64,000 nt of DNA from an uncultured Chloroflexia bacterium (GCA_963842805.1 CAWJIA010000012.1:284623-348622); one strand, 5' to 3'. Counted from the stretch's first letter, positions 2,828-62,468 are shown. Translations and numbers: made by a program. Notes: generated by a model not told the origin, from the sequence alone.

Positions 2828-2950
2828 GCCTCTGGCAGTGGCATATTTTCCCAAGGAATCCCTCCCTCAGTATCGTCTGCGCTGAAGCGTTTCACTTCCG
2901 TGTTCGGGATGGGAACGGGTGGTGCCGCCTCGCTCTAACCACCAGAGGAC
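2828..2950 (-). rRNA. rrf: 5S ribosomal RNA, orphan (no 23S rRNA adjacent)
   Basis: The reverse complement reads ...CACCCGTTCCCATCCCGAACACGGAAGTGAAACGCTTCAGCGCAGACGATACTGAGGGAGGGA..., which matches the bacterial 5S consensus (CCGAACACGGAAGTTAAGC core). Terminal helix I pairs as CCUCUGG/CCAGAGG. It is not in the ORF track; the spurious ORF 2770..2964 overlaps it. Confidence 0.8.
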
Positions 2951-4224: not shown

Positions 4225-7200
4225 TCAGGTGACATCTTCAACGGCAACCGGGCTCTCGGAGACTTCAAGCAGGTTCTCCACCGGCTCCGAAAAGACGATG
4301 GGGCCATCATCCAGCAATAAATTGGACGGCTTGCCCAATCTCTGCGTAAGGGTACTGTTAGAAGGTATCAGCTTGCCGATAATTACGTTCTCTTTGAGAC
4401 CATGCAGCCTGTCGGTCTTGCCCCAAATGGCCGCTTCGGCCAGCACCCTGGTGGTTTCCTGGAAGGAAGCCGCCGCCAGCCAGCTATCGGTATTGAGCGA
4501 AGCGCGGGTGATACCCAGCAGCACGGGACGTGCCACCGCCTGGTCGCCTCCCTCAGCTTCCATCTTGGCATTGATATTTTCGAAGTCGAGCCTGTCGACC
4601 AGGTCGCCGATCAGCAGGTCGGTATCGCCCGAGAACTCCACCCTCACGCGGCGCAGCATCTGCCTGACGATGGTCTCAATATGTTTATCATTGATACTCA
4701 CGCCCTGCGAGCGGTATACCTTCTGTACCTCGCCGATCAGATAGTGCTGTACATCGTTGCGCCCGTTGATATGCAGGATATCCTGCGGGTCTTTTACGCC
4801 TTCAACCAGCTTGTCTCCGGCCCTTACGTAATCTCCCTGCCTGACCAGAACATGGCTGGTAACCGGCACTTCGTATTTGCGCTCGTCTTTATCTTCGTAG
4901 GTTATGATGACCTTACCTGCTTCCACCCTGGCCATACCGTCGACACGTGCGACCAGTGGATGGCTTTCTACGTCACCTTTAATAACGGCCTTGCCCGGCT
5001 GGGCAAGGACATCGCCACGCCTGACGAGTATATTATTCTCAGTGACTACTTTATATCCGGGCGGAATCTCGTGCTCTATGGGATAAGCTTCAACATGTGT
5101 GATGGTTATCTCACGGCGCTGCAAACTGCCGTCCTCGACCACTTCATTCATATTCACCGTTCCGTCGATCTCGGTCAGGACGGCCTTGCCCTTAGGCACC
5201 CTTGCTTCGAAAAGTTCTTCGACGCGGGGCAGACCCGTAGTGATATCTGCGCCCACCACACCACCGGTGTGGAATGTGCGCAATGTAAGCTGAGTACCGG
5301 GTTCACCGATGCTCTGCGCTGCTATAATACCGACGGCGGTCCCGATCTTGACCATCTCCGTCGATGAAAGGTCACGCCCGTAGCAATGCTGGCAGACACC
5401 CCGCTTGGAATTGCAGATCAGCGGCGACCTGACATTGACGGTCTTGAGCTGCGCCTGAAGGATCAGCTTAACTTTTTCCTCGTCGATCATCTCGTTGCGG
5501 GCGACGATGATTTCACCCGTCTGAGGATCCACTATATCTTTGGCTGCCAGGCGACCTTTCATACGTTCGTCAAAGGCCGGTAGCAAACCTTTTTCTTTCT
5601 CGTTCATTATGGCCGAGAATTCAAAGCCGTCACCGGAATATCCGCAATCCTCTTCCAGAATGATCAGCTCCTGGGCTACATCGATCAGGCGCCTGGTGAG
5701 GTAACCTGCATCGGATGTCCTCAAGGCTGTATCGGCCAGACCTTTGCGTGCCCCGTGGGTCGACATGAAATATTCCATGACCGAGAGGCCTTCACGGAAA
5801 CTTGCTTTGATGGGGAACGGGATGATGCGTCCCGAAGGATCAGTCATCAGGCCACGCATGCCGGCCATCTGCCTTATCTGGGAAATATTACCTTTGGCAC
5901 CCGAAAAAGCCATCATGTAAACGCCGCCGTACCTATCCAGCGATCTCTTTATCTCGTTTTCAATGTCGTTGGTCGCCTTAGTCCATACATCTATGGCCTG
6001 CGTTTCGTACTCTTCATCAGTGATCAGGCCCCTGTTGAACTGGTTTTGTAATATGGCGATATCCTCGTCACCCTTAGCAATGATCTTGGGCTTGGTCTTG
6101 GGCACTTCGATATCCCTGGCCGAGATGGTGGTGCCCGATTTGGTAGTATATTCGAAGCCGACGCGTTTTAGCTCGTCGAGCATGGTTACGGTCTTTTCGC
6201 GGCCGCACCAGCGGAAGCATTCGGATACCAGCCTGCGCAGGTCGCCCTTGCTGGTGGCGAAGTTGCAGAATCCATTATAAGGCTCGTGCTGGCGTAAATC
6301 GCAGGGTACAATCCTGTTGAAAATTATGCGGCCGACACTGGTCTTTATGATCCGGCTCTCCGGACCAGCCATGCGTAATTCCTCTTCCTGTTCGACGGTT
6401 TCCATGGTTTCCGCCGTTTCCGGGGTTGCTGGAATTTCGGCAGTTTCCGCGGCTTCGCTAACTTCTTCCATAACGGGCTGCTCTTCTTTTACCTCAGTAC
6501 CCTTGATGCGAACCATGATCTCTTCATGCAATGCAGGGTATGTGCTCTCGCCGGTGATATTAAACATTTCATAGGCAAGGATAGCTTCGGAGGGACTTCC
6601 AAACATCTTGGGTGCCCCGTCTGTAGCGGGCTTCATGTTGGTCAGGTAATAACAGCCCAGCACCATATCCAGGGTGGGAGTCATGACCGGCTCGCCGGAG
6701 CTCGGCAGCAGCATATTGTGCACGCTGAGCATCTGCTCACGCGCTTCACGTACAGCCGATCGGGAAAGCGGGACATGGACGGCCATCTGGTCACCGTCGA
6801 AGTCGGCATTGAACGCCGAGCAGACCAGCGGGTGAAGTTGTATGGCGCTACCCTCGATAAGTATCGGCTCAAAGGCCTGGATACTGAGCCTGTGAAGCGT
6901 TGGGGCGCGGTTCAGCATCACGGGGCGCTCCTTGATCACTTCAGCCAGTATATCCCACACCTCCAACCTGGCACGCTCGACCTGCCTGCGGGCGCTCTTT
7001 ATATTGTGCGCAAAGCCTTGCTCTATCAATCTACGCATTACGAAGGGCTTGAACAGCTCAAGCGCCATATGCTTGGGCAAACCGCACTGATGCAGCTTTA
7101 ATTCCGGCCCGACTACGATAACGGAACGTCCGCTATAGTCAACACGCTTACCCAGCAGGTTCTGACGGAAGCGGCCCTGCTTACCACGCAGCATATCCGA

Positions 7201-8337
7201 CAGCGATTTAAGCTTGTGAGTGCTAGCGGCGCTGGGCAGCCTGCCCCTCCTGCCGTTATCTATCAGGGCATCAACAGCTTCCTGGAGCATCCTTTTCTCA
7301 TTGCGAACAATAATCTCGGGCGCCCCCAGTTCCATCAATTTCTTCAGGCGGTTGTTGCGATTGATGACCCTGCGGTAAAGATCGTTAAGGTCGCTGGTGG
7401 CAAACCTTCCACCATCAAGCTGAACGATGGGGCGCAGCTCGGGCGGCAAGACCGGCAGAACTGTGAACACCATCCACTCCGGCTTATTGCCGCTGCGCCA
7501 GAACGCTTCTACGATCCGCAGCCGTTTGCTTAATTTCTTATGTTTCTGGCCTTCGCTGGACCTGATATCCTTTACCAGCTTCTGCCTTAATTCTTCCAGG
7601 TTCATGGACTTAAGGATATTCAATACAGCTTCCGCACCCATACCCACCTCAAAAGCATCGCCGTATTTTTCCTTATAATGCTGATACTCGCTCTCACTCA
7701 GGACTTGCAGCGGCAGCTTAGCGATTTCGGAGAGGTCGACTTTGTTATCGCTGTCAAGATCAGCCAGTTTCTCTTCCAAATCATGCTTTTTGTCGGCGTT
7801 TTTCTCTAAATCGGCTTTGCCGCTGGGGGCATCGGTCTCGACCTCGCCCAGCGCCTTCAAAAGCTCCTGTTTTTTGTTGGTCTGGTACTCCTCCAGCCTC
7901 TGCTTGCAGGCTTCGGCATTGACGGAGACTATCACGTACTGTGCAAAATAAAGCACACGTTCCAGGTTGCGCGGGGAAATATCCAGCAATAGAGCCAGCC
8001 TGCTCGGAACACCCTTGGCAAACCATATATGCGCTACCGGTGCCGCCAGAGTAATGTGCCCCATGCGTTCACGGCGGACCTTGGAATGTTCCACCGTAAC
8101 GCCGCATCTTTCGCAGGTCACGCCACGATAGCGGATCTTCTTGTACTTGCCGCAATAACACTCATAGTTTTTAACCGGACCAAATATTCTTTCGCAGAAC
8201 AGTCCGTCTTTCTCCGGCTTAAGGGTCCTGTAGTTTATGGTCTCAGGCTCGGTTACTTCACCGTAAGACCATTCTTCAATCTGTGTGGGCGATGCAAGGG
8301 ATATGCGGATTGCATTAAAATCGTTTATTTCAAACAC
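4225..8337 (-). CDS. rpoC: DNA-directed RNA polymerase subunit beta'
   Basis: 1370 aa. The N-terminal zinc-binding Cys cluster is present, as is the NADFDGD catalytic motif (seen as [15 protein letters not shown]). It lies immediately downstream of rpoB. Confidence 0.95.
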
Positions 8338-8346
8338 TTTTTACCC

Positions 8347-12069
<3,723 letters not shown>

Positions 12070-32948: not shown

Positions 32949-33251
32949 ATGCCTGTGCTTAGACAAGATAAGGAACAGAAATCAGAAAAAAGACAGCTGC
33001 TAAGAGGAATCTGGTTTCTTTTTAATGTAGGTTGGTACGTCGCACTTAGCCTGATTGTGCCAACGCTAATTGGTCTGTGGTTGGATGCTCCCGAGAGATT
33101 GAACAGCCGACCACTATGCACGTTAATAGGGTTTGTAACGGGAACCATGGTAGCGGGATATGGACTGTACCGTATGCTGCGCCAGTTAATAAAAGAGCAA
33201 AAAGACATGGACGCTAAAAAGAACTTGATAAAGGAGCAGGACAGTGAGTAA
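32949..33251 (+). CDS. ATP synthase accessory protein (AtpZ/AtpI-like small membrane protein)
   Basis: 100 aa with two TM helices. It sits immediately upstream of atpB and overlaps its start. Confidence 0.5.
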   Translation: MPVLRQDKEQKSEKRQLLRGIWFLFNVGWYVALSLIVPTLIGLWLDAPERLNSRPLCTLIGFVTGTMVAGYGLYRMLRQLIKEQKDMDAKKNLIKEQDSE

Positions 33252-34212
33252 ACTAGGTTGCTCCAGCCGTTTAATGGTCATCTTGGGCATTATAGTTCTT
33301 GCGCTCTTCCTGACATCGTTTGTCATGGGACCGCTCGGCAGCAAGTTTTTCAATATCCAGGTCCCCAAGGACCTGCAGGTATCCAAACCCTTCGTACAGC
33401 TTCCTTCCGAACCGATTTTCTACATAGGCGGATTCAAGATCACCAACACCGTTATAGCATCGTGGATTACCATACTGGTGCTATTCCTGCTGTTCTTCTC
33501 TGCCACTAGGAAGATGAAACTCATACCGGGAAGGATGCAGAGTTTTGCCGAAGTGGTGGTCGAAGGCATTTATAATACCATTGAGGGCGTAGCCGGAGAA
33601 AAACACGTGCGTACGTTTTTCCCGTTGATTACTACCATATTTTTATATGTCGTTACCAACGCTCTGCTAGCCCTTATTCCTCTGTGGGGTACCTGGGGAC
33701 CGATAGAACACAGCGCAGAGGGCACGGTTATCGTCCCGTTCCTGCGGGCAGCCAATACCGATATTAACCTTACGCTTTCTATTGCGCTTATATCTTTCTG
33801 CTTTATTGAATACCTTGGCTTCAGCAAGATCGGCCCGCTCAAGTATATCGATTCATTTTTCAAGTTCAGCGAGCTGGGCAAAGCCTTCGGAAAGCTTTTC
33901 AAAGGCGACGGCAAATCGTTTATCAGCGGCTTTGCTTTCGGTTTCATCAATATATATGTAGGGCTGCTGGAAATTTTAAGCCACTTTATCAGAATAGTAA
34001 GCTTTACCTTCCGTCTATTTGGCAACATGACTGCCGGTGAAATATTGCTCGGCGTAATGACCTTCCTGGTAGCTTTTATAGCTCCCGTCCCGTTCTACGG
34101 ACTTGAAACCCTGGTCGGTTTCCTGCAGGCTATGATCTTTGCCGGGTTAACACTGGTATTCGGAGTAATGGCAGTAACCTCGCACCAAGAAGAGGGTGCT
34201 GAACAACATTAA
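33244..34212 (+). CDS. atpB: F0F1 ATP synthase subunit a
   Basis: Polytopic protein. The conserved Arg is in the penultimate helix (RLFGNMTAGE). Confidence 0.9.
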   Translation: MSKLGCSSRLMVILGIIVLALFLTSFVMGPLGSKFFNIQVPKDLQVSKPFVQLPSEPIFYIGGFKITNTVIASWITILVLFLLFFSATRKMKLIPGRMQSFAEVVVEGIYNTIEGVAGEKHVRTFFPLITTIFLYVVTNALLALIPLWGTWGPIEHSAEGTVIVPFLRAANTDINLTLSIALISFCFIEYLGFSKIGPLKYIDSFFKFSELGKAFGKLFKGDGKSFISGFAFGFINIYVGLLEILSHFIRIVSFTFRLFGNMTAGEILLGVMTFLVAFIAPVPFYGLETLVGFLQAMIFAGLTLVFGVMAVTSHQEEGAEQH

Positions 34213-39960: not shown

Positions 39961-40191
39961 TTAGACGATTTCTAGCCTAACCCTGGTACCTTCTTTGGTG
40001 GCAACCACACGCAAAAGGGTGCGCATAGCTTCGGCAACCCTTCCCTGCTTGCCTATCACCCTGCCCTTATCCTCCACATTGACTTCCAGTTTGATAACTA
40101 CTCCACCCGAGTCAGTCTCTTCAGTAACTTTGACATCATTGGGTGCGCTGACGATGGACTTGGAAATGTATTCGACTAACTCCTTCATCAT
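39961..40191 (-). CDS. KH-domain RNA-binding protein (UPF0109/YlqC family)
   Basis: 76 aa with the GKQGR KH motif ([15 protein letters not shown]). It lies downstream of rpsP, as ylqC does. Confidence 0.75.
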
Positions 40192-40532
40192 GACTTCACC
40201 TCAGTACTAGATTTAGATTTTTTCTTCTGTTTCTGAGTAGTCTTCTGTACCGCCTGCCTGAACTTCCTGGATGGATGAGCCGATTTGAATTTGTCCATAA
40301 CCCCGGCTTTGGACAACAATCTATACGTTGTCTCACTCGGCTGAGCACCTTTCTCCAACCATGCCAGAGCTTTTTCATCGTCAACATTTATAGTTTCGGG
40401 ATCGTTAAGGGGATTATAATTCCCGATAACTTCTATAAAGGCGCCTCCCCGAGGTGATCTGCTGTCAGCTACTACTATTCTGTACGCTGGTTTGTGTCGG
40501 GCGCCTATTCTTCTTAACCTGATTTTTACCAT
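40188..40532 (-). CDS. rpsP: 30S ribosomal protein S16 (with basic C-terminal extension)
   Basis: [30 protein letters not shown] is the canonical S16 N-terminus. Confidence 0.9.
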
Positions 40533-54845: not shown

Positions 54846-56324
54846 TCAGGCAGCACAACAGGAGCCTCTATCTAGTTCTTTTCTTACGTATTTCAGCGCT
54901 TCCTCCTTCGTTCGTATCTCGCCGGCCGACTGGGCCTCCCTGACCATAATCAGCAGCCTGCCTATGGTTTTCCCAGGGCTCAATTTGAACTCCTGCATCA
55001 GGTCCGTTCCGCTTATTAGCCTCACGGGCATCATCTCGCTCTCCTGCTGATTATGGACATCAATTATATACTTGACCTGTTCAATATGCATATGCCACTC
55101 GTCAACATTCACCCGCGGCCCGGCCACGGCCAGGTAATCCGCCAGCGCCAGGAAGATAACATCGATGCCGGCGCCTTCGGTGTCCCTGAAGTAGCGGTAG
55201 ATCGCTTTGTGCGAGGGCAGCCCCTCATTGGACATCTGTGCGGGGTGCAGGTGGTGATAGACAAGCTTTTCGATGTAGCGTATCTCGCGGTTGCTGAACC
55301 TCAAACGTTCCAGTATCGAAGCAGCCATAGCTGCCCCTTCCTTAGTATGCCCCAGGAACCTGATCCGGTTGTCCTCGATGGTTTTTGTCTTGGGTTTGGC
55401 GATATCGTGCAGCAGCAGTCCCAATTTGATAAGCGTCCTGCGTTTGCTGCCGCCGGCTATTTCCTCATTAAAATGCTCCTCGATCTCATCCGACCAGGGT
55501 ACCAAGGCGCGTAGCTCGCGGCTGCCATATACCCAATCGCTCTCCCTTAATATAAACTCCAGTGCGGCAATGGCCTCGATGGAATGATCGAAAACATCCC
55601 AGTAGTGCTCTTTGGGCTGCCCCACGCCCTTAAGGCTTTCCATCTCGGGTATTATTTTACCCAGTAATCCGAAATCGTCCAGGTATCGTAGGGAGTTCCC
55701 GGCATAAGGCAGCGACAGTATCTTGAGCAACTCCTCCCTGATCTTTTCACTGGCCACTTTGCGCACCAGTCTGCAGTTGCGGCGTATGGTATCTTCGGTG
55801 ATAGGCTCGATCTCAAGGTTCAGTTCCCTGGCCAGTCTGACCGCACGCATAAGCCGTGAGGGGTCCCTATGGAAGACCATATCGCTGACCTGCCTGAGCA
55901 GGCCTTTCTTCAGGTCCTCTTCTCCGCCGGCGGGGTCCAGCAGCCTAACATCACCCGACACGAAGGTCTCCAGGTCGAGCGCCATAGCGTTCACAGTGAA
56001 ATCCCGCCTCAGCAGGTCACGGTCAATATTGCCAGCAAAGGATGTTATGTCAATCTGCCAGGACTGATCATCGCCGGCCACCACAATGCGGCCGACCTTG
56101 TTCTCTTCGTCCAGCATGACATAGGTGCCGTCCACCAGCTCGGCAGCTTCCTGAGCAATTGCCAGTGAATCGCCGCTGACAGCTATATCCAGGTCTGTGG
56201 TATCTCTCCCGACCAGCCAGTCGCGTACAAAACCGCCGACCAGGTAGGCTTTGCATTCGGGAAAGGTGCATACCGGTGAAAGCTTGGTAAGTATCCCCAT
56301 CAAATCCGCATCGATTTCGAACAC
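54846..56324 (-). CDS. cca: CCA-adding tRNA nucleotidyltransferase (class II, poly(A) polymerase head + HD domain)
   Basis: N-terminal YLVGGFVRDWLVGR...DLDIAV is the polymerase-beta head. It is followed by an HD domain (HD...HDIAK). Length 492 aa. Confidence 0.8.
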   Translation of the reverse strand: MFEIDADLMGILTKLSPVCTFPECKAYLVGGFVRDWLVGRDTTDLDIAVSGDSLAIAQEAAELVDGTYVMLDEENKVGRIVVAGDDQSWQIDITSFAGNIDRDLLRRDFTVNAMALDLETFVSGDVRLLDPAGGEEDLKKGLLRQVSDMVFHRDPSRLMRAVRLARELNLEIEPITEDTIRRNCRLVRKVASEKIREELLKILSLPYAGNSLRYLDDFGLLGKIIPEMESLKGVGQPKEHYWDVFDHSIEAIAALEFILRESDWVYGSRELRALVPWSDEIEEHFNEEIAGGSKRRTLIKLGLLLHDIAKPKTKTIEDNRIRFLGHTKEGAAMAASILERLRFSNREIRYIEKLVYHHLHPAQMSNEGLPSHKAIYRYFRDTEGAGIDVIFLALADYLAVAGPRVNVDEWHMHIEQVKYIIDVHNQQESEMMPVRLISGTDLMQEFKLSPGKTIGRLLIMVREAQSAGEIRTKEEALKYVRKELDRGSCCAA

Positions 56325-56507: not shown

Positions 56508-57620
56508 ATGCAGTATAAACGCATAGTTATTAAGCTGGGCACCAACCTGCTGACAGGCGGCAGCCCCCGGCTCGACAGCAAAATAATGAAGGATCTGGTA
56601 CGGCAAGTTGCAGAGCTTCATCACAAAGACCATGAGATAATCCTGGTTTCATCGGGAGCAGTAGCGGCCGGTCGCGAAAAACTGGGGATGGCCAATAAAA
56701 TTAAGGATATCCCTTTTAAGCAGGTCATGGCTTCAGTAGGACAGAACCGCCTGATGCATATTTATGACGAGCTTTTTTCCATTTACGATATCAATGTGGC
56801 GCAGGCTTTGCTCACCCGGGCCGACCTGAGCGACCGCTCACAATATTTGAACGCCCGCAATACCCTGCTCGCCCTGATAGACCTTAAGGTGATCTGCATC
56901 ATCAACGAAAACGACGTGGTCTGCACCGACGAACTGGGTGAGCTTAAATTCGGCGACAACGATAACCTGTCGGCCATGGTTTCCAACCTGGTCGACGCTG
57001 ACCTGCTAGTACTTCTCTCGGATGTAAAGGGGTTGTATTCAGCCAACCCCCAGCAGGACTCCAAAGCCAGCCTTATACCGGTGGTTGAGAAAATAGATGA
57101 GAAGATCGAGGAGATGGCCGGCGGAGCCGGCAGCTCGCATGGCACGGGCGGGATGGTGACCAAATTGGAGGCAGCTAAACTGGCTACCTCCTCCGGTGTC
57201 CCCGTCATTATCGCAGATGGCTCGCACCCCGATATAATAACCGAGGTCGCCTCGGGCAAGAGCCTGGGTACTTTCTTCAAGGCCCGCAGCAGCAAGATCG
57301 AGAGCAGGAAACGCTGGCTTCTATCCGGCCTTTGCTGCATGGGCAGGGTGACCATCGATAAGGGAGCGATAACCGCCCTGCGCAAACAGAACCGCAGCCT
57401 GCTCCCCGCTGGCATCGTGCAGGTGGAGGGCGGATTCAACCGCGGCGATGTAATCGATATCTATGACGGCGGCGGTAACCAGGTGGGCAGCGGTATTACC
57501 AATTACAGCTCGGACGAGCTGGGACGTATAAAGGGGGTTCAGTCGAGCGAGATAACCAGCATCCTGGGCTACGAGTACGGCGATGAGGCAGTTCACCGCA
57601 ACAACCTGGTACTGATTTAA
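56508..57620 (+). CDS. proB: Glutamate 5-kinase (with C-terminal PUA domain)
   Basis: Amino-acid kinase fold (IVIKLGTNLL, VSSGAVAAG) plus a PUA domain. Length 370 aa. Confidence 0.9.
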   Translation: MQYKRIVIKLGTNLLTGGSPRLDSKIMKDLVRQVAELHHKDHEIILVSSGAVAAGREKLGMANKIKDIPFKQVMASVGQNRLMHIYDELFSIYDINVAQALLTRADLSDRSQYLNARNTLLALIDLKVICIINENDVVCTDELGELKFGDNDNLSAMVSNLVDADLLVLLSDVKGLYSANPQQDSKASLIPVVEKIDEKIEEMAGGAGSSHGTGGMVTKLEAAKLATSSGVPVIIADGSHPDIITEVASGKSLGTFFKARSSKIESRKRWLLSGLCCMGRVTIDKGAITALRKQNRSLLPAGIVQVEGGFNRGDVIDIYDGGGNQVGSGITNYSSDELGRIKGVQSSEITSILGYEYGDEAVHRNNLVLI

Positions 57621-57653
57621 ATATGAAGGATGGGAAACCAAGGGGTAAATTCA

Positions 57654-58928
57654 ATGCAGGCAGATATCAATGAACTGGTGGGAAAAGCCCGACAAGCCAA
57701 AGTTGCATCTAAAAAGCTGGCGTTCACTCCCACCGGAGTAAAGAACGATGCGCTGGCGGCCATATCTCAAGCCCTGTTGGACAGGGAAGATATGATCCTT
57801 CATAACAACCAGAAGGACTATAAAGAGGCCGAAGCTTCCGGCATGAGCGAAGCCATGCTCGACCGTCTGATGCTCAACTCCGCCCGGCTCAAGGGCATAT
57901 CCGACGACGTGCAGACCGTTGCCGCTTTGCCCGATCCCATCGGTGAGGTCATAGAAGAGCGCACCCTGCCCAACGGCCTTCTGCTGAGCAAGCGTCGCGT
58001 GCCCCTGGGCGTGATCGGCGCCATCTACGAGAGCAGGCCCAACGTTACCGTTGATATATCAGTGCTGTGCCTCAAAGCAGGCAATGCGGTTATGCTGCGC
58101 GGCGGCAAGGAGGCTTACCGCTCCAACCTGGCGCTGGCGAACACCGTCCAGGAAGCTTCTTACAAAGCCGGTATACCCGCCGGGGCCGTACAGTTTATCG
58201 AGTCCACCGACCGCGGCCTGGTCGATAATATGCTCAAGCTGAAGGAGAGCATCGACCTGATGATACCCCGAGGAGGAGCGGCACTGATCAAATTCGTGAA
58301 GGATAACGCCGCCATGGCCGTGGTGGCGGGCGGCATAGGCGTCTGCCATACCTACGTGGATAAAACTGCCGACATCGCTAAAGCCGTGGCTATCACTTAC
58401 AATGCCAAAGTGCAGCGCCCCACGGTCTGCAACGCGCTGGACTGCGTGCTGGTGCACAAGGACATCGCCGCCGCGTTCCTGCCCGCCATGGCCAGAGAAT
58501 GGGACAAAGCAGGCGTGGAGATGCACTGCGACCAGCGCTCACTGGAAATACTGAAATCCATACATGGTTTAAATGTCCATCCTGCCGTAGAGGAGGACTG
58601 GGGCAATGAGTTCCTGGCCCTGGTGGGATCTATAAAAGTAGTCGGCTCTCTGGACGAGGCGCTGGAGCACATCGATCGCTACGGCTCCGGCCACTCAGAG
58701 GCCATCATCAGCGAGGATAAAGATTCGATCGACCGCTTCCTGAACGAGGTGGACGCCTCCTGCGTCTATGCCAATGCCAGCACCCGTTTCACCGACGGAG
58801 GCCAGTTCGGCATGGGCGCCGAGATAGGGATAAGCACACAGAAATTCCACGCGCGCGGACCGATGGCTTTACGTGAGATCACAAGTTACAAATGGTGCAT
58901 CCGGGGTAACGGACAGGTTAGACCGTAG
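57654..58928 (+). CDS. proA: Gamma-glutamyl phosphate reductase
   Basis: ALDH-fold with the catalytic Cys in the CNA context (VCNALD). The start was chosen at ATG 57654 (MQADINEL), which has an AAGGGG RBS. This is in frame with the ORF-track start at 57630. Confidence 0.9.
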   Translation: MQADINELVGKARQAKVASKKLAFTPTGVKNDALAAISQALLDREDMILHNNQKDYKEAEASGMSEAMLDRLMLNSARLKGISDDVQTVAALPDPIGEVIEERTLPNGLLLSKRRVPLGVIGAIYESRPNVTVDISVLCLKAGNAVMLRGGKEAYRSNLALANTVQEASYKAGIPAGAVQFIESTDRGLVDNMLKLKESIDLMIPRGGAALIKFVKDNAAMAVVAGGIGVCHTYVDKTADIAKAVAITYNAKVQRPTVCNALDCVLVHKDIAAAFLPAMAREWDKAGVEMHCDQRSLEILKSIHGLNVHPAVEEDWGNEFLALVGSIKVVGSLDEALEHIDRYGSGHSEAIISEDKDSIDRFLNEVDASCVYANASTRFTDGGQFGMGAEIGISTQKFHARGPMALREITSYKWCIRGNGQVRP

Positions 58929-58967
58929 TAGTCGTTGCTTTGCCCATATTGGGGGCAGCATCCTGAT

Positions 58968-59765
58968 ATGAACAGAAAGAAAAGCTGTCTGAAGATAATC
59001 GACGAGTTGGCGAATGCATTTGACTTAGACTTTTCTGACCAATTCACGGAGGACTCTGTCAGAAGTAAAACTTTTAAACACAGGGTCAATGACCTTACTT
59101 ATGTAAAAAAGGTGGTCGAGTGCACTTGCTACATTGACTATGCGCTATTTGTGGAACTTGGCATTAAGCATCCTACGCCTTACATCGCGTTTGAATCTGA
59201 GACTGACCTTCATGGCTCCATCTATCTTGCCCTAGGTGGTTACTATCGCCAAGCCCTGATTTGCCTTAGAGCATGGCTCGAGTTGACCATTGTCGGTATC
59301 TACTATGGCCGCAACTACGAGGTAAATGACTCAGAATTTGAAAAATGGAAACGAGGCGATAAGCAATCGCCTTCATGGAGTAAGCTTCTGAACCTACTAT
59401 CCGCAGAACTTTCCTTCAAAAAAGCAAACGAAGTTATATCGCTAGAGCAAAAATTGAAGGATTTCTATTGGAAAATTTCATCATTTGCTCATGGTCGTGG
59501 CATGGAATTATATGATCTGCAGCGAGGGCGGGATAATGTACCAAGATTCCTTGACCATTCCTTCGACATTTGGATTCTGTTTTTGAAGCAAGCTTATGCA
59601 TTATGGCGTCTATCGTTATATTCAGCGTATCATCAATCGATACACAACTACCTAAATAAGTATCCTAACGATGCACGCGGGATAGCAGATATACTGCCCG
59701 AGGAATCGCTTGCCCAATTGGAAGTATTAAGCCGATCATCTGTTTTCATGGGCAAGCGGACTTAG
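58968..59765 (+). CDS. Hypothetical protein encoded on a low-GC single-gene insertion
   Basis: The ORF is about 265 aa with no recognised motif. Local GC is about 42%, versus about 55% for the flanks, and codon usage is AT-skewed. It is inserted between proA and rph. Confidence 0.45.
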   Translation: MNRKKSCLKIIDELANAFDLDFSDQFTEDSVRSKTFKHRVNDLTYVKKVVECTCYIDYALFVELGIKHPTPYIAFESETDLHGSIYLALGGYYRQALICLRAWLELTIVGIYYGRNYEVNDSEFEKWKRGDKQSPSWSKLLNLLSAELSFKKANEVISLEQKLKDFYWKISSFAHGRGMELYDLQRGRDNVPRFLDHSFDIWILFLKQAYALWRLSLYSAYHQSIHNYLNKYPNDARGIADILPEESLAQLEVLSRSSVFMGKRT

Positions 59766-59783
59766 AATCCTTTTGTTTAGACT

Positions 59784-60506
59784 CTAGAGTTTTAAACCAT
59801 CCAGAGCCTTTTTCTGCTCTTCAAATAGCTGTTTAATGCCTTTGTCAGCTAGTACAAGTAGCCCGTCCACGGTTTCCTTGGAGAAGGGCTTGCCCTCTGC
59901 CGTTCCCTGCAATTCAACGAAGTCGCCTTTGTCGGTCATAACCACATTGAAGTCCACGCCGGCGCGGAAGTCTTCGTCGTAGCACAGGTCCAGCATCTTT
60001 ACTCTGTCGACCACGCCCACGCTGACCGCCGCTATCGCGCACTTAACCGGCATGACCTTGTAAACCCCCTGCTTCCTCAGCTTGGCCACTGCCTGGAAAA
60101 GCGCCACGTAGGCGCCCGTTATGCTGGCCGTACGTGTCCCCCCGTCTGCCTGTAATACATCGCAGTCGATTGTGAAAGTCCTTTCACCGAGAGCGTCCAT
60201 ATCCACAGCGGCACGCAGGCTCCTGCCGATCAATCTCTGAATCTCCTGTGCACGTCCCCCCTGCCGGTCCGGGTTGCGTGCGCTGCGGGTATGTGTAGCC
60301 CGCGGCAGCATGCCATACTCGGCGGTTACCCACCCTGTCCCCTTACCCTTGAGAAAGGGCGGTACCCGGTCCTCCACGCTCACGGCGCATACCACACGCG
60401 TATTGCCCATCTGGATCAGCGCAGAGCCCTCGGGATAGTCCTGGTATCCCAGTGTTATGTTCACCGGCCTTAGCTCGTCATTGCCTCGCCCGTCTATTCT
60501 AGCCAT
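59784..60506 (-). CDS. rph: Ribonuclease PH
   Basis: [14 protein letters not shown]-terminus plus conserved RNase PH blocks. Length 240 aa. Confidence 0.9.
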
Positions 60507-60643
60507 TTAAATACCTTCCTTATCGATTCAGGCGCAAGTATAGCATCTAAACCTGACCCGCTGCGAGCACGCAAGTTTTGAAGCAAATAATTTGTTATTA
60601 TTTTATTTAGCGTGGTAACTATTTTTCTCAGGGAGGCCGTGAA

Positions 60644-61096
60644 ATGTTCAGTAAAATATTAGTGCCGCTCGATGGATCGGATACTGCCGAATGCGTTTTT
60701 CCATATGCAGCGGAAATTGCCCGCATTAATAATTCGAAAATCGAGCTGGCCATGGTGGTGGAGCCCTACGAAATACCTTTGCACGGAGGAGTTGTATTCG
60801 ATCAAGACAGCCTCAGGGAGCTGGAGCAATATTCGAAGAGGAGGGCCAAAGACTACGTGCAGAGAAAACAGAAATATTTTCAATCAAAGGGAATCGATGT
60901 CAATACGACCGTGCGTGCCGGTAAAATAGCCGACAGCCTGATTGACTATGCAGACTCTAAGGGTTTCGACCTCATCGTCATGGCCACGCACGGCAGGTCC
61001 GGCGTTTCACGCTGGCTTGTAGGCAGCATAGCCGATAAGATAATAAACTCTTCAAATATACCGGTCCTTCTAATCCGTCCGGGTCAGCAGCGTTGA
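60644..61096 (+). CDS. Universal stress protein (UspA family)
   Basis: 150 aa. ILVPLDGS N-terminus, C-terminal ATP-binding-type motif (GRSGVSRWLVGSIA). Confidence 0.8.
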   Translation: MFSKILVPLDGSDTAECVFPYAAEIARINNSKIELAMVVEPYEIPLHGGVVFDQDSLRELEQYSKRRAKDYVQRKQKYFQSKGIDVNTTVRAGKIADSLIDYADSKGFDLIVMATHGRSGVSRWLVGSIADKIINSSNIPVLLIRPGQQR

Positions 61097-61100
61097 TTTA

Positions 61101-62198
61101 ATGGAAGCAGCATACCTCCAGCAGCAAGCCTCTCCTTTCACGGTTATCGGTTTGACTCTCATAACTGTGCTTACGCTTATCCTGCCCTTTATGCTCAAGA
61201 AGGTTAACGACCACATAGAGATCTTCTTCATGGCTATGGGCCTTGCTGCAATGACCGTGTCCTGGAGATGGTCAGGAGATCTGATAATCGAGGCGCTCAA
61301 GTCGCCGCTTACCGTGGGCGGTTTACCCATCGGAATCTTTCAGGTCGTGCTCGTCTTTGGCCTGCTGATTCATTATTTCAACAGGCAGATTTACAGCTTC
61401 ATTGAAAGGGCATACGCCAGGCTGAACGCCAAAGTTTTTTTCTTTCTGCTGATACTGCTGCTCGGCCTGTTTTCCAGCATCCTTTCAGTGATAGTCACGG
61501 CTGTTATACTTTCTGAAGTCTTTATGGTGATTCCCATCGGCAAAGAAGATAAAACCAGGATGGCTATCATAGCCTGTTTCGCCATTGGACTGGGTGCCGG
61601 CCTGACCCCCATAGGGGAGCCGCTATCCACCATCATGGTATATAAATTGGCGGGAGAGCCCTACCATGCCGGCTTCTTTTTCCTGGCGCAGCACCTGGTC
61701 ATATATATCATCCCCGGCATCATCCTCCTGGCTGTAACAGGATGGATCTTCGCCAGGCGCACCACCGTCAAATATCAAGAGGTAGAAGGATATTCTGAGA
61801 GCATTAAGGGCATACTAATCAGGTCTGTGAAGGTCTACGTATTCATCGCCGCTCTCATCCTGCTGGGCGAAGGCCTAAGGCCGCTATTCGAACTATTTCT
61901 CTACCGTTTGCCTTCGTGGGCGCTTTACTGGATAAACATTATCTCCGCCATACTGGATAATGCCACGCTTACCGCCATAGAGATTAATCCGAGCCTGCAG
62001 CTCTCCCAGATAGTAAGCGCAGTTATGGCTTTGTTGATTGCTGGCGGCATACTTCTACCGGGCAATATCCCCAATATAGTTGTGGCCGGCCGCCTCAGGA
62101 TCAGCATGCGGGAGTGGGCGTTGATAGGAGTCCCTCTGGGACTGGCCCTGATGCTTGTTTATTTCATCGTGTTGATACCTGTTTTTATAGGTTCATGA
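61101..62198 (+). CDS. Polytopic membrane protein of unknown function (possibly DUF1646-type putative cation transporter)
   Basis: 365 aa with about 10 predicted TM helices. It is co-directional with, and 5 nt downstream of, uspA. Confidence 0.4.
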   Translation: MEAAYLQQQASPFTVIGLTLITVLTLILPFMLKKVNDHIEIFFMAMGLAAMTVSWRWSGDLIIEALKSPLTVGGLPIGIFQVVLVFGLLIHYFNRQIYSFIERAYARLNAKVFFFLLILLLGLFSSILSVIVTAVILSEVFMVIPIGKEDKTRMAIIACFAIGLGAGLTPIGEPLSTIMVYKLAGEPYHAGFFFLAQHLVIYIIPGIILLAVTGWIFARRTTVKYQEVEGYSESIKGILIRSVKVYVFIAALILLGEGLRPLFELFLYRLPSWALYWINIISAILDNATLTAIEINPSLQLSQIVSAVMALLIAGGILLPGNIPNIVVAGRLRISMREWALIGVPLGLALMLVYFIVLIPVFIGS

Positions 62199-62332
62199 TT
62201 CATCCTCTATCCAAAAGGAACAAACGCCGTTCAATGCCCAGTTAAAGGAAATCTCCAAGCTCCAAACAATTATTTAATTTTAAAATTTTACTAATTTGCT
62301 TGGAATTTGATTGAGAGATTGCTTCGCTGTCG

Positions 62333-62368
62333 CTCGCAATGACCGGTTTCCTGAATTGTCATTGCGAG
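62333..62368 (+). promoter_or_regulatory. Perfect 11-bp inverted repeat (CTCGCAATGAC N14 GTCATTGCGAG) in leader of TSUP permease gene
   Basis: Direct reading of the sequence. Three GGAATTTG direct repeats lie nearby at about 62302, 62418 and 62426. Confidence 0.3.
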
Positions 62369-62468
62369 GCACATCGTGTCGTGGCAATCCTGCAATCGAA
62401 GGCTGAAGCCCCGTTTTGGAATTTGGAATTTTTCACGGTCTCAAATATGCTATCCTTTTAAATTAATC

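Follow-up and report, generated by a model that had tools for sequence, protein, structure and literature searches.

It was found that the gap between the convergent proA and rph genes of a Dehalococcoidia lineage is filled by a single gene, here called ORFX, that was acquired recently by horizontal transfer. ORFX encodes a 265-aa, predicted all-alpha protein of a rare, unnamed family resembling DUF5677. As a kind of thing it is familiar, namely an orphan accessory gene at a hot spot between core genes. The best explanation overall, to which I give a probability of about one half, is that ORFX is a recently captured accessory gene in a proA-rph hot spot and most likely a stand-alone component of defence or conflict. 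In this study, the window denotes the whole 64-kb stretch of DNA that was analysed, and positions are counted from its first letter.

ORFX, its edges and its base composition

The original prediction placed a single gene of about 265 codons between proA and rph, with very short spacers on both sides. This proved correct. ORFX extends from an ATG at position 58968 to position 59765 on the plus strand, and Pfam identifies its neighbours as proA (57630-58928, plus strand; gamma-glutamyl phosphate reductase, Aldedh) and rph (59784-60506, minus strand; RNase PH, RNase_PH and RNase_PH_C), which are the conserved left and right anchors of a variable spacer. The gap between the two anchors is 855 nt. 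The reading frame itself spans positions 58935-59765 and would give 276 aa counted from a TTG at 58935. This TTG is merely the first possible start past the proA stop codon, while the ATG agrees with the N-termini of the homologues and with an identical database entry (P0001). The distance from the proA stop codon is 6 nt to the TTG and 39 nt to the ATG, and the stop codons of ORFX and rph are 18 nt apart. The two peptides quoted in the original prediction, WKRGDKQSPSW and FYWKISSFAHGRG, are both present in the translation. It had also been claimed that the gene interrupts housekeeping genes. The location between proA and rph stands, but no gene is interrupted; it is the intergenic spacer of two convergent genes that has been filled.

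The left edge of the foreign segment is a 39-nt leader (58929-58967, plus strand) between the proA stop codon and the ATG, and a sequence comparison revealed no similarity between this leader and the spacers of the closest relatives. A G-rich run at positions 58952-58956 may be the ribosome-binding site of ORFX. The right edge is the 18-nt spacer at positions 59766-59783. When compared by eye with the spacers of four close relatives (loci L016, L018, L019, and L036), it retains a remnant of about 10 nt (TTTGTTTAGA) from the ancestral spacer, an AT-rich sequence that lies beside rph in the closest relatives. Since this remnant stays beside rph, the foreign segment runs roughly from 58929 to 59770 and most of the older spacer has been replaced. 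The four loci have in common an AT-rich stretch with short TTTAGAG-like repeats just downstream of rph.

ORFX lies in the same frame as proA, behind tandem TAG codons at positions 58926-58931, of which the second in-frame TAG (58929-58931) belongs to the leader. For this reason, the open reading frame begins 6 nt past proA. The shared frame is probably a coincidence, which has a one-in-three chance. A sequence scan found neither a promoter-like nor a terminator-like site between proA and ORFX. Because ORFX is on the same strand as proB (56508-57620, plus strand) and proA, and because the 39-nt gap contains no terminator, ORFX is probably expressed by read-through from the proBA transcript. Upstream of proB, the CCA-adding enzyme gene occupies positions 54846-56324 on the minus strand. 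Beyond rph, Pfam identifies genes for Usp, DUF1646, and then TauE.

A contig of 1064 nt from the Logan resource (run ERR10755942), produced by another assembly pipeline, is 100% identical to positions 58871-59934 of the window and spans both junctions. Thus, the proA-ORFX-rph arrangement is not a chimera, since both junctions recur in a separately assembled contig.

The predicted drop in GC content, to about 42%, was also confirmed. ORFX has a GC content of 42.8%, while the mean of the window is 51.4% (standard deviation 3.3% over windows of equal length), which places ORFX in the lowest 0.8%. Among the 48 ORFs of at least 150 aa in the window, ORFX has the lowest GC content and the lowest GC3 value (0.455 versus 0.61 ± 0.064), and its CAI-like index (0.609 versus 0.715 ± 0.052) is the third lowest. 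The genes flanking ORFX have GC3 values of 0.68-0.70. On the other hand, small native housekeeping genes of the window also have low GC3 values, such as the S16 gene (0.443), an atp gene (0.475), and the L9 gene (0.51). Since the native S16 and atp genes show similarly low values, the composition of ORFX is suggestive on its own and not decisive for a foreign origin. It is synteny, rather than composition, that establishes the foreign origin of ORFX.

Other low-GC patches of the window are located at about 11.5-12.1, 19.5-20.4, 22.4-22.7, 32.4-32.9, and 39.8-40.6 kb. Apart from the patch at 11.5-12.1 kb, those inspected are native small housekeeping genes with their spacers and not foreign DNA. 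The low-GC native genes include those for L9 (19628-20074), L32 (20997-21218), and S16 (40188-40532), as well as atp genes near 32949-34212. The idea that ORFX is the sole low-GC stretch of the window was thus ruled out by these native ribosomal-protein and atp patches.

The proA-rph junction in related genomes

Is ORFX common at this site in related bacteria? A scan with ProA yielded 80 related loci, one genome per species, all of them from Dehalococcoidia or Chloroflexota metagenome-assembled genomes, with ProA sequences 61-94% identical to that of the window. In 36 of the 80 loci, a tblastn search with the window proteins located a convergent rph gene downstream of proA. The conservation of the convergent order in these 36 loci indicates that the proA-rph junction is ancestral. 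The spacer between the two genes ranges from about 0 to 4.4 kb in these 36 Dehalococcoidia genomes, and its cargo differs among them. It is 15 nt or less in 15 loci, 16-200 nt in 4, 201-1000 nt in 8, and longer than 1 kb in 9.

The original prediction of a recently acquired cargo gene was borne out by this comparison, together with the deviating GC content and codon usage. At a tblastn threshold of 1e-5, none of the 80 related loci has a match to ORFX, either at the junction or elsewhere in the locus, and no pseudogene remnant of ORFX is detectable in any of them. This includes the five closest relatives, whose ProA and Rph proteins are 92-94% and 92-96% identical, respectively, to those of the window. 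The spacers of the five closest relatives are 112, 119, 172, 505, and 3200 nt in length, and their sequences are mutually unrelated.

The larger spacers carry diverse genes. The spacer of L017 (6282-9481) encodes a membrane protein, a GlpD-like oxidoreductase (PDB 3da1, 6e-70), and a kinase-like ORF. The spacers of L021 and L031 (about 6276-10680) encode an anaerobic sulfatase-maturating enzyme (anSME; 4k36, 7e-68), a membrane protein, and an arylsulfatase (4cxk, 1e-66). Other relatives have small ORFs or an inverted-repeat element in the spacer. Thus, the proA-rph spacer in this clade is a hypervariable landing site, or hot spot, for unrelated cargo, and ORFX is the private filling of this lineage. 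Since the cargo in the same spacer of the relatives is metabolic, the site itself says nothing about defence.

A short inverted-repeat element is common to the proA-rph spacers of L019 (about 6300-6440) and L028 (about 6330-6440), whose ProA sequences are 92% and 81% identical to that of the window, respectively. The element reads CATTGCGAGC...GAAGCAATCC...GATTGCCACGG...CCTCGCAATGAC and has the appearance of a MITE or a REP-type repeat.

No tRNA gene is present in the 64-kb window, and a search for direct or inverted repeats flanking ORFX found none of note. No integrase gene lies near ORFX; the 5 kb on either side contain proB, proA, rph, and the genes for Usp, DUF1646, TauE, and the CCA-adding enzyme. 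No Rfam element lies near ORFX either, the sole Rfam match in the window being a 5S rRNA gene (2830-2946, minus strand). The possibility that ORFX is an integrative mobile element or a genomic island was rejected because it has no integrase or recombinase, no tRNA or att site, and no flanking direct repeats. The locus resembles the integration hot spots and islets found between core genes in that conserved proA and rph genes bracket a variable spacer holding anything from nothing to 4.4 kb. It differs from them in that the proA-rph site has no integrase, tRNA, or direct repeat, and in that the ORFX insert is one bare gene.

A second variable spot is the rph-tauE junction (60507-62375 in the window), which contains the genes for Usp (60644-61096) and DUF1646 (61101-62198). 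Both of these genes are missing in the closest relatives (L016-L019 and L036), where rph directly adjoins tauE, except that L036 has a gene for a 417-aa membrane protein there instead of Usp and DUF1646.

The ORFX family and its predicted structure

Searches of Pfam, NCBIfam, PADLOC, and PHROGs with ORFX stayed below threshold throughout. Out of 5.8 billion clustered proteins, no more than 12-13 match ORFX at an E-value of 1e-3 or below, with 36-59% identity, and all of them are unnamed. An exhaustive profile search of 1.84 billion cluster representatives extended the family to 740 members at 1e-3, of which 188 remain at 1e-10 and 25 at 1e-30; these roughly 740 clusters are defined at 50% identity. 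The core common to the family corresponds to profile positions from about 75 to 225, and numerous distant members belong to a sister family, whose proteins are 340-360 aa long and carry an additional region at the C-terminus. A homology search with a profile of 150 sequences added one named relative, a hypothetical protein of Leptospira kmetyi, and a scan of metagenomes for relatives found only 7 loci. Profile searches of the PDB sequences with the family profiles returned chance matches only. In summary, this family is previously undescribed; Pfam, PADLOC, and NCBIfam contain no model for it, and the PDB contains no structural relative.

In an alignment of 59 sequences, the residues R101, E105, P135, H175, G178, and W202 are invariant, and R101 and H175 are kept by 90% or more of a set of 150 sequences. 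ORFX is intact, with every invariant residue present. A pair of homologues that are 96% identical has a dN/dS ratio of 0.19, a value indicating purifying selection on the family. That ORFX truly encodes a protein is shown by the conserved blocks in the homologues, the 740 clusters, the dN/dS ratio, the confident structure models, and the independently assembled junctions.

Relatives of ORFX were also sought in phages, plasmids, and viruses. There was no tblastn match in the INPHARED phages or the PLSDB plasmids and none in IMG/VR, the best E-value in PHROGs was 0.33, and BFVD gave no significant match. In the absence of a homologue across these five collections, the candidate assignment of ORFX as a phage or plasmid gene was rejected.

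The structure of the ORFX protein was predicted using AlphaFold2 (AF2). The model based on 13 sequences has a pLDDT of 80.9 and a pTM of 0.82, and the model based on 59 sequences has a pLDDT of 88.7 and a pTM of 0.88. The modelled protein is wholly helical with 12 helices, the long ones at residues 40-64, 69-89, 93-115, 159-174, and 196-231. Four long helices form the core, with an insert between core helices 2 and 3. According to these models, the ORFX product would be a soluble all-alpha protein. The placement of R101 and E105 on one helix and of the motif His175-x-[RK]-Gly178 at the end of another suggests a catalytic or ligand-binding site.

HEPN domains are helical RNase or ligand-binding domains that are common in abortive-infection, toxin-antitoxin, and CRISPR-accessory proteins. 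The predicted ORFX protein is similar to them in its all-alpha core of four long helices and in having a conserved His before the last core helix as well as a conserved Arg and Glu on a neighbouring helix; in addition, defence islands house both HEPN proteins and ORFX homologues. In Foldseek searches (two models against the PDB and one against BFVD), no match had an E-value below 0.35. The PDB match of the highest probability was a HEPN domain in both runs (2hsb, probability 0.80 and TMt 0.64; 3o10, probability 0.66), although the E-values of 1.3-2.5 are not significant. In contrast to HEPN proteins, the ORFX family lacks the canonical Rx4-6H motif. His175 is invariant within the motif [LI]SxF[AV]HxRG with no conserved Arg 4-6 residues upstream, and Arg101 is 74 residues away. 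No HEPN-type match was found in Pfam for ORFX at E-values up to 10 or across 150 relatives at E-values up to 1, and a comparison of the family profile with a HEPN (PF05168) protein by hhalign gave a probability of 0.1. The ORFX protein is also larger, with 12 helices and the insert mentioned above. With no canonical motif and no support from the profile comparisons, ORFX is not classified here as a HEPN protein; a HEPN-like core or mechanism is weakly suggested.

DUF5677 (PF18928) is the only recurrent sequence signal. It was detected weakly in 6 of the 13 close relatives and in 47 of the 150 wider relatives, with a best E-value of 6.7e-5. ORFX itself matches DUF5677 at residues 85-119 with 11.9 bits (E-value 0.24), and the highest score among the close relatives is 22.1 bits. 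The weak matches are co-linear and fall on the two most conserved helices of the ORFX family; the helix with GGYYRQA..LR.WLE corresponds to model positions 17-69 and the helix ending with the His to positions 115-149. A difference is that every score in the ORFX family is under the gathering cut-off of 27.1 bits. Judging from these alignments, the ORFX family is probably a distant, sub-threshold relative of DUF5677. The literature found gives no function for DUF5677/PF18928. According to a preprint, DUF5677 is enriched beside serine recombinases in defence contexts (PMC12632615), and one member that was tested conferred no protection against the phage panel used (PMC12632615).

Homologue neighbourhoods and the possible role of ORFX

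I examined ten loci of close homologues outside the window for defence or mobile genes within 10 kb, and such genes were recognised in seven of them. L002 has genes for an integrase, an AAA protein, and a type III restriction enzyme. L102 has genes for a DNA methylase and a SIR2_2 protein beside a two-gene cassette that is also present in L002. L006 has a type IIG restriction-modification gene, an Old/GajA-like gene, and PDC-S15. L011 has type I hsdRMS genes, DUF5615, and integrases. L008 has PDC-S01, NYN, and a RE_endonuc-like gene, and L013 has genes for HEPN and AAA proteins. L110, from another Dehalococcoidia metagenome-assembled genome, has two integrases, an HTH_17 protein, DUF2726, Mrr, HNH, and TIR. 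As for the other three, P0212 stands alone between an H+-PPase gene and a methyltransferase gene, like the window copy among housekeeping genes; the context of L107 is uninformative, and that of L109 is too short to judge. In these ten contexts, the ORFX family is biased towards defence and mobile neighbourhoods.

The neighbourhoods of the sister family (about 340 aa) are mixed accessory regions with GNAT, APH, MFS, ABC-F, toxin-antitoxin, and NotI restriction-modification genes. The sister-family gene directly adjoins an ABC-F type ATPase gene in two of the three long contexts (L098, 9105-11051; L099, 9100-11106), and GNAT acetyltransferase genes are located within a few kb of it in all three.

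The original prediction had named toxin, abortive-infection, and other defence singletons as candidates. The seven of ten homologue contexts with defence or mobile genes speak for this view. Against it, PADLOC-DB v2.0 gave no match for ORFX at E-values up to 10 and seven singleton weak matches, none recurrent, for 150 relatives, and the window has neither a defence gene nor a partner gene near ORFX, so that the case is circumstantial. ORFX resembles single-gene abortive-infection and defence candidates (e.g., the PDC-S entries of PADLOC) in being solitary, in its size of about 250 aa, in its patchy distribution and deviant composition, and in having homologues that adjoin restriction-modification, Old/GajA, SIR2, Mrr, TIR, and integrase genes. 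It differs from them by the lack of a match in PADLOC v2 and by its location outside a defence island in the window. Elsewhere, defence or mobile islands are where most of the family is found, and a role in defence or conflict is therefore the most likely one for ORFX.

The two-gene cassette mentioned above is 1.5 kb in length, and its copies in L102 (99-1609) and L002 (7313-8824) have 95.7% nucleotide identity in two different flanking contexts. It consists of two overlapping genes, one for a 190-aa protein with a HEPN-like RQIRNLIH motif and one homologous to ORFX; the 190-aa proteins of the two loci are 91% identical. Thus, the cassette appears to be a small mobile module. The 190-aa partner was found only with the P0003 clade, the closest one that is well sampled, and hhalign gave a probability of 0.1 for a match between the family profile and this partner. 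A conserved upstream partner for the whole family was rejected, as the 190-aa genes upstream in L002 and in L099 of the sister family are unrelated to each other and the other upstream genes differ. A type II toxin-antitoxin pair was likewise rejected, as the window has no partner, the 190-aa partner was observed with the P0003 clade only, and the upstream genes elsewhere are unrelated.

How did ORFX arrive, and what might it do? The gene landed in the spacer between the convergent proA and rph genes, a recurrent landing site in the clade. Since the insertion has no integrase, tRNA, or repeat signature, it was probably captured when the conserved flanks recombined. Roughly 800 nt of foreign DNA would thereby have replaced most of an ancestral spacer of about 120 nt, and ORFX, lying 39 nt behind proA, would be read through from proBA. 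In the protein, Arg101/Glu105 and His175-x-[RK]-Gly178 may form the active or binding site. The protein would act alone in anti-phage or inter-element conflict, possibly as a HEPN-like effector or sensor. A bolder version seems doubtful to me: the family would be an unrecognised stand-alone anti-phage or abortive-infection effector with a divergent HEPN-like core, in which Arg-Glu...His replaces Rx4-6H, captured without an integrase at convergent core-gene hot spots by streamlined Dehalococcoidia.

Among the other explanations, it is possible, if rather unlikely, that ORFX is an acquired accessory gene unrelated to phage defence, such as a stress-related, regulatory, or small-molecule-binding helical protein, that it moves along with the flexible gene pool, and that its homologues have defence neighbours because accessory genes generally cluster in variable regions. 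The window copy and P0212 being alone among housekeeping genes, the metabolic cargo in the same spacer of the relatives, the acetyltransferase, APH, MFS, and ABC-F genes beside the sister family, the lack of PADLOC matches, and the tested DUF5677 protein without defence activity (PMC12632615) are all in line with this. However, seven of ten contexts with defence genes or integrases are far above what a rough estimate, rather than a computation, would predict for a random accessory gene. An improbable scenario is that ORFX is the orphaned half of a two-gene module (toxin-antitoxin or effector-immunity), of which the window would have kept the second gene alone, as a leftover antitoxin or immunity protein, or a solitary toxin. 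The cassette shared by L102 and L002, with its overlapping genes and its closely similar partners in two contexts, would fit such an origin. Nevertheless, the 190-aa partner accompanies the P0003 clade only, other comparable contexts have no conserved upstream partner, the 39 nt between proA and the ATG leave no room for a partner in the window, and ORFX is intact with all invariant residues kept.

The view that ORFX is an ancestral, vertically inherited gene that was repeatedly lost in the relatives is close to refuted. The proA-rph spacer is prone to turnover, so deletions must occur too, but ORFX is absent from all 80 related loci, including the five with 92-94% ProA identity, with no pseudogene remnant; its composition is deviant; and even the nearest homologues share just 54-56% identity with it and come from unrelated contexts. 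Least credible of all is that the ORF is spurious or that a low-GC spacer was misassembled into a chimera. Chimeras can occur in assemblies from metagenomes, and the ORF is nowhere annotated with a name, but it belongs to a conserved family with invariant motifs, its structure model is confident, and the contig from the other assembly pipeline is identical over both junctions. Vertical inheritance and artefact are thus effectively excluded, and a recently captured gene with a stand-alone role in defence or conflict stays the preferred reading.

If the defence reading is true, ORFX would represent another single-gene immune family, and one from a class of Chloroflexota, the Dehalococcoidia, whose defence repertoire is barely explored; its predicted fold would be unlike any solved structure. 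If that reading is wrong, ORFX would be an ordinary orphan accessory gene. In both cases, invariant residues, a confident model, and a set of genomic contexts now delimit the ORFX family. The junctions proA-rph and rph-tauE provide a clean natural example of single-gene uptake in small streamlined genomes without mobile-element machinery.
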